A DNA stretch of 64,000 nt. It comes from Candidatus Bathyarchaeota archaeon. Its GTDB lineage: Archaea > Thermoproteota > CALKCG01 > B24 > DRYS01. A program made the translations under genes and the position numbers. The notes beneath the pieces are model-generated. The model searched no databases. It was not told the origin of the DNA and saw only the letters and a program-made list of their open reading frames with translations. This document shows, piece by piece, positions 56,423 through 58,061 of this stretch. Position 1 is the first letter of the stretch; each line of letters starts with the position of its first letter. Where the stretch lies: positions 128,001 to 192,000 of the forward strand of contig JAGTQC010000002.1 in the NCBI GenBank assembly GCA_018396535.1. Direction: 5' to 3'.

Positions 56423-56887
56423 ATGTCTATGCTAGGTATTCCATCACATTGGAGGAGGAGGAAGGAAAGATATAGGCTTATAGGATCTAAATGCGAGGCA
56501 TGCGGCAAAGTATTCTTCCCTAGGAGGGAGATATGTCCTAATTGTAGGCGTAGAGGTAGGGTGATAGATGTAGAGCTACCTGGGAGGGGAAAAGTCTATA
56601 GTTATACTGTCATAAGAGTACCATCAGAGGGTTTTGAATATTATGCACCATACATAATAGCTATAGTAGAGCTTGAGAACGGTGTTAGAGTTATGAGCCA
56701 GATAGTTGATTGCAATCCAGAGGATGTATATATAGGTATGCCTGTCGAGGTATGCTTCAGAAGGATATTTAGTCAAGGCGATAAGGGGATAATAAGCTAC
56801 GGGTTTAAATTCAAGCCACTAGACGATAGCTGGATCAGATGCTATGAAGAAGAAGCTAAGATTAGCGTATCTGAGATGAAAGTATAA
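56423..56887 (+). CDS. DUF35 Zn-ribbon/OB-fold scaffold of the thiolase/HMG-CoA synthase complex
   Basis: C..CG..FFP.R..CP.C, G.VYSYTVI, YGFKF.P; canonical operon position. Confidence 0.9.
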   Translation: MSMLGIPSHWRRRKERYRLIGSKCEACGKVFFPRREICPNCRRRGRVIDVELPGRGKVYSYTVIRVPSEGFEYYAPYIIAIVELENGVRVMSQIVDCNPEDVYIGMPVEVCFRRIFSQGDKGIISYGFKFKPLDDSWIRCYEEEAKISVSEMKV

Positions 56888-56957
56888 GAAGCCCTGAATA
56901 TAACGCTCGGGAAAAACTAATCTCAACCCCTTTACCATATTTTTCTCCAGGGCTAAA

Positions 56958-57019
56958 GGCACCGGAGACGGGCGAACAGACCTTTACCAGGGATGATGAC
57001 TCCACCTAAAATAGGTGCC
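56958..57019 (+). ncRNA. Candidate K-turn-containing guide sRNA (H/ACA-like or C/D-like)
   Basis: GC-rich intergenic hairpin GGCACC/GGTGCC enclosing CAGA-CCT(TTACC)AGG-GAT-GATG, which fits a standard kink-turn; flanked by rRNA-complementary arms. Confidence 0.5.
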
Positions 57020-57032
57020 GGCTAAACCACCC

Positions 57033-58061
57033 CTACATTCTTAAAGATATTAACGCGATCCCACCGATTGCTATTTCAAACCATAGCATAACAATTCTTA
57101 TCATGAGCGTAGCTGCTACGCTAATAGCAGATGGTATACCGACTAAGGAATATAGAGCTGCCATAATAGTTTCGACCACACCAATCATCCCTGGTATACC
57201 GATCGGTATCATCTGAATGGTTATACCTATCGTATATATTGATATGATGATGGGTACTTCAATTGTGTATCTAAGTGAGAGAAAAACGAAGTATGCTACC
57301 ATTACATCTAAAATCCATGCTATCCACGATAAAGATATCGATAGGACGACTATCTTCTTCGTAGTAGTTATAAGTTTCATGGAATAGTCAAACTTATATA
57401 CAAAAACCTCTATCCTAGAGTATAGCTTTTCACTTTTACTCCCTATAAGTTTTAGGATAGGTTTTATTGTAGTAAAGATTATTTTTGGATATATTATCAT
57501 AACTAATGCTAGAAGGGAAAATATAGCAATAACTATAGCGATTTTAGAAAACATCTGGAATAACATAGATGTTAGTGTAAAGCTCATAGATAGGTACAGG
57601 AAGCCTATAATCGAGCCTAAAAGAAAAGGGAGAAGGGAGAAAATCCTATGGAGTAGTACTGTAGCAGACGCGATCTCGTATGAGCAACCGTATCTACGAT
57701 TTACGGTATATATCCTAAAAAGCTCCCCGCCTATGGAGGCTGTCGGTATAGCGAGATTAAGGAATATACTTCCTAGTATTATCTTTAGGGATGAAACGAA
57801 ATCTATAGGTGACCCTGTAGCTTTTAAGAGTATACGCCATGACTCTGAATATGCGGCTATTCCAAGTGTAACCGATATGAATGATGCAAGATATAGCATA
57901 GGATTTGCTGAAAATATATAGCCTATGGATAGTTTTATATCAGGATACGATGAAAAAAATAGTGTCAATAATATTAAACCTACTACCGTTAGCGATATTA
58001 ATTTTCTAAGTCTGAAGGCTATCCTAACCGATCCACCACCATTCATCTTAGGGTTAGACAA
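57033..58061 (-). CDS. Lysylphosphatidylglycerol-synthase TM / UPF0104 flippase-like protein
   Basis: P.ASIGGE.FR, IPIGIPGMIGVVE, multi-TM. Confidence 0.85.
   Translation of the reverse strand: MSNPKMNGGGSVRIAFRLRKLISLTVVGLILLTLFFSSYPDIKLSIGYIFSANPMLYLASFISVTLGIAAYSESWRILLKATGSPIDFVSSLKIILGSIFLNLAIPTASIGGELFRIYTVNRRYGCSYEIASATVLLHRIFSLLPFLLGSIIGFLYLSMSFTLTSMLFQMFSKIAIVIAIFSLLALVMIIYPKIIFTTIKPILKLIGSKSEKLYSRIEVFVYKFDYSMKLITTTKKIVVLSISLSWIAWILDVMVAYFVFLSLRYTIEVPIIISIYTIGITIQMIPIGIPGMIGVVETIMAALYSLVGIPSAISVAATLMIRIVMLWFEIAIGGIALISLRM

Follow-up and report, generated by a model that had tools for sequence, protein, structure and literature searches.

A conserved single kink-turn RNA from an archaeal genome as a predicted box C/D-type guide for C1402 of 16S rRNA

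Background

What kind of RNA is encoded by a short kink-turn hairpin that lies between two convergent genes of an archaeal genome, and on which RNA would it act? The window (the whole stretch of 64,000 nt that was analysed) corresponds to C7:128001-192000 of a metagenome-assembled archaeal genome, which comprises 14 contigs and 1.41 Mb and is 93% complete. The element sits in a 145-nt gap with convergent protein genes on either side: a thiolase and ChsH2-type OB-fold/zinc-ribbon pair on the 5′ side and, on the opposite strand, a gene for an LPG_synthase_TM membrane protein on the 3′ side. A sequence-only reading of the window had proposed an atypical H/ACA-like pseudouridylation guide or chaperone, with two arms bracketing the A-loop of 23S rRNA helix 92. 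Here we argue that window positions 56950-57029 (+) probably encode a box C/D-type guide RNA which is reduced to a single kink-turn and is predicted to direct ribose methylation of 16S C1402 (Cm1402). From the earlier proposal, a conserved kink-turn RNA of guide type, read from the + strand and aimed at a functional centre of the ribosome, has been retained, but the H/ACA assignment, the helix-92 target and the two-arm bracket have not.

Results and discussion

One kink-turn closed by a basal helix

The 5′ strand of the basal stem, GGCACC (56958-56963, +), pairs with GGUGCC (57014-57019, +), and this 6-bp helix closes a loop with several distinct parts. Read 5′ to 3′ on the + strand, these are a guide strand GGAGACGGGCGAA (56964-56976), a D-type box CAGA (56977-56980), a mini-hairpin CCU-UUACC-AGG (56981-56991), a C-type box GAUGAUGA (56992-56999) and a variable connecting strand CUCCACCUAAAAUA (57000-57013), which is not a conserved guide. 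The guide core GACGGGCG occupies 56967-56974 and is followed by AA before the box; the fifth guide base upstream of the box is G56972. CAGA is one change away from the box D sequence CUGA, which is the form found in most family members, and the C-type box holds the RUGAUGA consensus as AUGAUGA at 56993-56999.

The mini-hairpin provides the canonical stem of the kink-turn, with CCT (56981-56983) paired to AGG (56989-56991) and GAT (56992-56994) bulged out. Tandem sheared pairs G56995.A56980 and A56996.G56979 follow, and then U56997-A56978 and G56998-C56977. With the D-type box first, followed by the loop and the C-type box, the arrangement matches an internal C′/D′ motif, here with a real canonical stem of 2-3 bp. 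Basal stem and apical kink-turn had been described in the sequence-only reading, and each of the listed features is present, as are the two arms that it named, ACGGGCGAA at 56968-56976 and ACTCCACC at 56999-57006.

The box motifs are readable on the + strand alone. An RNA from the minus strand was rejected, since the boxes cannot be read there and its fold was no better than that of shuffled sequences (z = -0.91). The single-sequence fold of the element itself was likewise no better than that of shuffles (z = 0.03). Rfam searches, run at gathering thresholds over the whole window and at permissive thresholds over 56800-57150, returned only sub-threshold partial matches to C/D snoRNAs, and in 14 related loci no guide RNA matched any Rfam family.

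Conservation and covariation across homologs

The element was found by BLAST in two further genomes of the same genus, with an identity of 84-87%. In these three orthologs the 5′ arm and both boxes are invariant, and the C-type box is also invariant in group A of the family described below. Variation among the orthologs is found in the apical loop, in the 3′ arm and in one additional pair of the basal stem, which is missing, U-A or C-G; in the 3′ connecting strand, several of the 14 positions differ. A covariance model (R1) run on 16 genomes of the order and class gave matches confined to the three same-genus genomes, and an exact 19-mer searched against the GTDB genomes recovered the same two relatives together with 17 chance bacterial matches. 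The guide sequence is absent from the supplements of Dennis et al. 2015.

When 17 homologs were aligned with the covariance model, 94.6% of the cells were paired compared to 72.8% in shuffles and 31-46% with slid partners, a percentage that is favoured by the fitting of the alignment to the model. The stems seen in raw homolog listings, outside the model alignment, agree with the covariation result. In the basal stem, all seven aligned pairs change on both sides and 95.8% of the cells are paired. The pair adjoining the sheared G.A is U-A in 11 of the 17 sequences, A-U in the other six and never unpaired; the boxes covary at A56978/U56997, CUGA occurring with GAAGA and CAGA with GAUGA. The loop of the mini-hairpin changes in length and sequence while its CC/GG is kept. 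The closing GG was not demanded by the search pattern and is present in the real homologs, but absent in five chance bacterial matches. On this comparative evidence the basal stem and the kink-turn are a real structure, beyond what chance would give.

These changes also bear on a cis-acting role, in which the hairpin would bind L7Ae or act as a terminator for the convergent genes, or else be what is left of a decaying box C/D gene without function in trans. The location in the 145-nt gap between convergent genes fits such an element, and L7Ae is reported to bind mRNA kink-turns (PMC5539422). Compensatory changes in the stems and the kink-turn, however, argue against a remnant, the single-stranded guide has been kept while the stems changed completely, and family members are found in unrelated genomic contexts, some beside tRNA genes. 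We consider a cis element or remnant very improbable.

The two arms behave differently outside the genus. In the other groups, the 3′ arm consists of 4-7 unrelated bases, but the 5′ arm is kept together with the boxes next to it; the RNA thus carries one guide and not two. A second guide in the 3′ strand was considered and dropped, as the strand is unconserved and gave no outstanding rRNA match. The conservation of the guide is an unbiased observation only within the three BLAST orthologs, because the patterns used to collect the family demanded guide and register.

A family with one kink-turn and its conventional relatives

Of 400 genomes sampled from the phylum, 19 contained the pattern GACGGGCG-NN-CWGA-loop-UGAWGA, and none contained a reversed-pattern control. 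In one taxonomic family it was present in 12 of 16 genomes, within sRNAs that end in a stem, have terminal boxes of varying degeneracy and carry a second guide, ACCAUUGUAGC, which matches UACAAUGG in 16S rRNA. The first guide of these sRNAs pairs 1-2 bases further toward the box with the register unchanged. Conventional box C/D sRNAs of other families of the phylum (L064-L077) carry the same guide in the same register, and in one of them (L077) all four consensus boxes are present.

A metagenome scan anchored on guide and boxes produced 34 loci. Five were discarded as GC-rich bacterial coding matches without closing GG or basal stem. The remaining 29 loci, together with two from genomes (L062 and L063), share the one-kink-turn architecture and fall into about eight groups, of which A, B and D come from hot springs and C from soil. 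Their basal helices are unrelated to each other in sequence (e.g. GGUGCACAGCG/CGUUGUGCGCC, ACGUGGCG/CGCCACGU, GGUAUACGGUU/AACCGUAUACC and CGGUGCAUGG/CCAUGCACCG). None of the one-kink-turn members has terminal C/D boxes or a conserved second guide. A second GA-dinucleotide pair at the basal helix is absent from all of them, while the conventional relatives have it or a degenerate version, and a second kink-turn at the basal helix was found in no family group. Since the searches required guide and register, the family as collected is confined to members with this guide.

In the group B metagenome loci, the guide RNA is located about 40 nt upstream of a tRNA gene (e.g. L078:595-779, with the tRNA at L078:693-779), which suggests co-transcription of the two.

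Helix 92 of 23S rRNA is a poor match

The 16S and 23S rRNAs are both missing from the host assembly, as a search of all of it revealed, and claims on guide targets in the host rest on relatives. For the target searches, the 16S and 23S rRNAs of a same-genus genome (G002) were used in place of those of the host.

According to the H/ACA proposal, the arms would flank the A-loop sequence GGUGGAGU-UG-UUCGCCCGU and leave U2552-G2553 unpaired. This sequence was not found: the 23S rRNAs of the genus and of the order read GGGUGAGUCUGCUCGCCUAUUAAAG at helix 92, and the same-genus rRNA, GGGUGAGU-CUG-CUCGCCUAU, mismatches both arms. Even the best register leaves a 3-nt gap, CUG, which does not start with U and is not the U-N expected for a pseudouridylation pocket. 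Helix 92 did rank second among 13,596 bipartite sites with a score of 12.5/17, corresponding to 6/8 and 6.5/9 pairs on the two arms. That score was reached by 69% of the shuffled arm pairs (in 138 of 200 shuffles, some rRNA site scored at least as well), so that the complementarity of same-genus helix 92 to the two arms does not exceed chance, the very outcome that had been named as refuting the proposal.

In general shape, the element does resemble the hairpin of archaeal H/ACA sRNAs: a basal stem leads to an internal loop and, at the apex, to a kink-turn of the L7Ae type. A Nop10 gene is present in the genome and H/ACA machinery thus probably exists, meaning that gene content does not discriminate against this class. 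In the details the likeness ends. The basal stem is followed by GGCUAAACCA, and in about 29 homologs no conserved ACA or ANA box is found after the stem; the lack of an ACA at the canonical distance of 14-16 nt had already been noticed in the sequence-only reading. The kink-turn or K-loop of archaeal H/ACA RNAs sits above an upper stem of about 5-6 bp, but only two Watson-Crick pairs (C56977-G56998 and A56978-U56997) separate the loop from the sheared pairs here. Compared with archaeal H/ACA sRNAs, the element lacks the ACA box, the bipartite pocket, an upper stem of normal length and a conserved 3′ strand, that strand being 4-7 nt long in most groups, and it matched no H/ACA family of Rfam. 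An H/ACA-like guide or chaperone at helix 92 can be given hardly any credence.

C1402 of 16S rRNA as the predicted target of the guide

When the 12-13 guide bases upstream of CAGA were compared with the 16S and 23S rRNAs of the same-genus genome, the best match was located at 16S positions 1368-1380 (ACCGCCCGUCGCC), with eight contiguous Watson-Crick pairs, a mismatch and two more pairs. The best target is thus not in the peptidyl-transferase centre, as had been suggested, but in the stretch CGCCCGUC, which we take to be E. coli 16S 1400-1407 (numbering by our alignment to the E. coli sequence). The fifth guide base, G56972, lies opposite the C that is equivalent to E. coli C1402, and the two bases adjoining the box remain unpaired with the target. 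Complementarity alone is not significant, as approximately 12-20% of shuffled guides reach an equal run over the fifth position in these rRNAs; the weight for a 16S target comes from the family.

In the same-genus 16S rRNA (L056:2869-2881, positions 1368-1380), C1407 is followed by G (CCCGUCGCC), where E. coli has A1408, a position tied to aminoglycoside binding.

C1402 is 2′-O-methylated in E. coli, in yeast, where snR70 is the guide, in human and in plants (PMC2794176; PMC11542601). In Nanoarchaeum equitans, Cm at 1402 was mapped with no sRNA candidate found, and sR11 of Ignicoccus hospitalis was proposed for the same site (PMC5389701).

A paralogous module in the tRNA-Trp intron

The strict kink-turn pattern has just two occurrences in the 1.41-Mb genome, the element and an anticodon intron of tRNA-Trp. 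The tRNA-Trp(CCA) gene (C12:55754-55962, - strand; L055) is 209 nt long and contains three introns, in the D-loop, in the anticodon stem between positions 28 and 29, and at 37/38; ARAGORN missed this gene even with intron search. The intron guide GCGGGUUU, upstream of a CAGA box, can pair with AAACCCGC, which belongs to the 3′ exon and lies at the 3′ splice junction; the fifth guide base is then opposite tRNA position 39. The 37/38 intron also includes CUGGAGC, complementary to the anticodon loop.

A tRNA-Trp intron with one kink-turn was detected in 12 of the 400 sampled phylum genomes and in none with the reversed-pattern control. From family to family, guide and exon change together (ACGGG/CCCGU, GCGGG/CCCGC and UCGGG/CCCGG), and two sister genomes have an A.C mismatch between them. 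The intron supports, independently of the 16S match, the reading of the module as a box D′-type guide that follows the fifth-base rule. In Haloferax, a box C/D guide borne by the intron of pre-tRNA-Trp methylates positions 34 and 39, with position 39 established by experiment (PMC7994747; PMC3326292). The 65-nt tRNA-Trp intron of Sulfolobus solfataricus forms a very stable circle, lacks consensus boxes and is complementary to positions 34 and 39 (PMC3326292).

With the archaeal pre-tRNA-Trp intron guides (Haloferax volcanii, Pyrococcus sR50, S. solfataricus) the element shares the module of guide, CWGA, CC-loop-GG and RAUGAWGA. In both, the basal helix is at the same time the inner helix of a bulge-helix-bulge, a putative one in the case of the element. 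It differs in being free-standing between protein genes and in having a guide that aims at 16S rRNA, not at its own host RNA. The similarity of the flanks is weak (covariance model score of 18.7 bits), and common descent is therefore only suggested.

Flanks resembling a bulge-helix-bulge

A direct repeat, GGCUAAA, is found on both sides of the basal stem. The 5′ half of a putative bulge-helix-bulge (56951-56957, +) consists of GGCU and a 3-nt bulge AAA, with a predicted cut at 56956/56957, and the 3′ half (57020-57029, +) of GGCU, a bulge AAA and CCA, with a predicted cut at 57025/57026. A central 4-bp helix can form between GGCU at 56951-56954 and GGCU at 57020-57023 (G.U, G-C, C-G, U.G), with a 3-nt bulge on either strand: AAA on the one, replaced by UAA in some orthologs, and AAA on the other. 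The inner helix, a strong one, is the basal stem; the outer helix is weak, with 1 bp in the window and 3 bp in G002, and the motif would be of the relaxed kind.

Within group A the 3′ flank GGCUAAACCA hardly varies, in contrast to the bases that follow it, and the exception, L103, has AGCU on this side, turning one U.G pair into U-A. Groups B and D show UCUU/AAGA, UCUU/GGGA and UCUU/GAGA at the same offsets, where the covariation of the central helix was tallied by hand and the groups differ by one column. Flanks of this type are absent in five of the eight family groups.

Predicted cuts were placed between bulge bases 2 and 3, a rule that yields the correct 7-nt anticodon loop when applied to the tRNA-Trp of the host. 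By the same rule, the excised RNA would be 69 nt long (56957-57025). The host genome encodes two splicing-endonuclease paralogs, which correspond to the two-subunit type of this enzyme that tolerates relaxed motifs. As the flanks would form a symmetric bulge-helix-bulge, the RNA may be excised and circularised; judged from these sequence features, the prospects for and against excision with circularisation are about even.

The flanks (GGGCU-AAA/UAA-GG) also look like an anticodon loop, and a tRNA fragment or intron was considered for this reason. No tRNA is predicted at the locus, tRNA-Leu(UAA) and tRNA-Phe(GAA) are located elsewhere, and the triplet is AAA in some orthologs and UAA in others; the tRNA interpretation was therefore rejected.

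A single-motif box C/D guide or a chaperone?

Boxes, register and the paralogous tRNA-Trp intron place the element with the box C/D methylation guides. It has C/D boxes within a kink-turn and a guide with its predicted target at the fifth base, and fibrillarin (C10:91360-92034) is encoded in the genome with Nop5 (C10:90515-91192) adjoining it. A second box motif, as in the C′/D′ plus C/D arrangement, is absent. Like archaeal box C/D sRNAs (including L064-L077 and Ignicoccus sR11) and the eukaryotic snR70/U43, the element combines a kink-turn of C/D type with a guide upstream of a D-type box, a target opposite the fifth guide base and the same predicted 16S site. In contrast to these, it has one motif and one guide, with a plain helix replacing the terminal C/D motif; it has the order D′ then C′, a 3-bp mini-hairpin, a CAGA box and bulge-helix-bulge-like flanks, and it matches nothing in Rfam. 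The description that suits its sequence best is that of a new architectural variant of box C/D guides, paralogous in design to the tRNA-Trp intron.

In the model that we favour, L7Ae would bind the kink-turn and Nop5-fibrillarin would assemble on top. The guide would pair with 16S 1400-1407 (E. coli numbering), and fibrillarin would methylate the ribose opposite the fifth guide base, i.e. C1402 in the P-site/decoding centre. The precursor would probably be cut by the tRNA-splicing endonuclease at the symmetric bulge-helix-bulge to give 56957-57025, and the excised RNA may be circularised, like the paralogous tRNA-Trp intron. The basal helix anchors the far end of the guide and might, as a conjecture, replace the second motif.

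The main difficulty with a methylation guide is the single motif, because with M. jannaschii proteins in vitro RNAs with one box C/D motif are active but lose site specificity, for which both motifs are required (PMC1635284). The engineered half-mer or 'hemi' box C/D RNAs (Hardin and Batey 2006) are alike in having one kink-turn and one guide. They are, however, synthetic and lose specificity in vitro, whereas the present RNAs form a natural conserved family in which a basal helix closes the guide loop.

This difficulty leads to the main rival, an antisense chaperone or assembly factor. Such an RNA would bind 16S 1400-1407 during maturation of the small subunit, keep the top of helix 44 open and perhaps carry L7Ae, with no site-specific methylation. 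Guide and target are identical to those of the methylation model, the pairing of sRNAs with rRNA has earlier been proposed to have a chaperone role (PMC5389701), and the methylation ruler may fail when a single kink-turn is present (PMC1635284). Against a chaperone speak the tRNA-Trp paralog, which points exactly at position 39, and a predicted site that is 2′-O-methylated across all domains of life. The spacing of guide and box is moreover the same in the conventional relatives, though the search pattern fixed that spacing. We regard a pure chaperone as rather unlikely, and methylation of C1402 as the probable function.

A broader proposal is put forward more tentatively, and we hold it to be somewhat doubtful: a natural family of 'hemi' box C/D RNAs, with one kink-turn, one guide and a closing helix, might consist of free-standing relatives of the crenarchaeal-type tRNA-Trp intron that are released by the endonuclease in some lineages, are perhaps circularised and install Cm1402. 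If true, archaeal Cm1402 sites without a recognisable sRNA would be explained, and site-specific guiding would be possible without the two-motif architecture that is thought to be required. With this family, nature provides a test of whether one kink-turn and a closing helix suffice for site-specific methylation, and a tie between free-standing guides, the tRNA-Trp intron and the release of RNAs by the endonuclease. A guide without terminal C and D boxes would escape the standard sRNA finders as well as Rfam. As for the site itself, C1402 is in contact with the codon in the P site, and the methylation of its ribose belongs to the very few that bacteria, archaea and eukaryotes have in common.

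Other guide-like features in the genome and at the locus

A conventional box C/D sRNA is encoded at C1:13955-14003 (- strand), with AUGAUGA, a 12-nt guide, CUGA, UCU, AUGAAGA, a second 12-nt guide and CUGA. Its D guide matches 10 nt at the 5′ end of 16S rRNA (CGGUUGAUCC), and for its D′ guide there are two 16S sites with matches of 9 nt. A strict regular expression gave no other full match in the genome, and this suggests that the guide repertoire of the host is small.

Within the window, a sub-threshold Rfam match to the C/D sRNA family sR2 (16.9 bits, E = 0.15) at 56827-56876 (+) lies inside the 3′ end of the ChsH2-like ORF. CAGA, AUGAAGA and CUGA are present in it, no box C was seen, and the match is probably due to chance.

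Between this match and the element, about 27-39 nt upstream of the latter, a block GAAAAACTAATCT (56911-56923, +) is invariant or nearly so across the three same-genus orthologs, whereas the adjacent intergenic bases vary; it is a candidate BRE/TATA-type block and possibly the promoter of the element.
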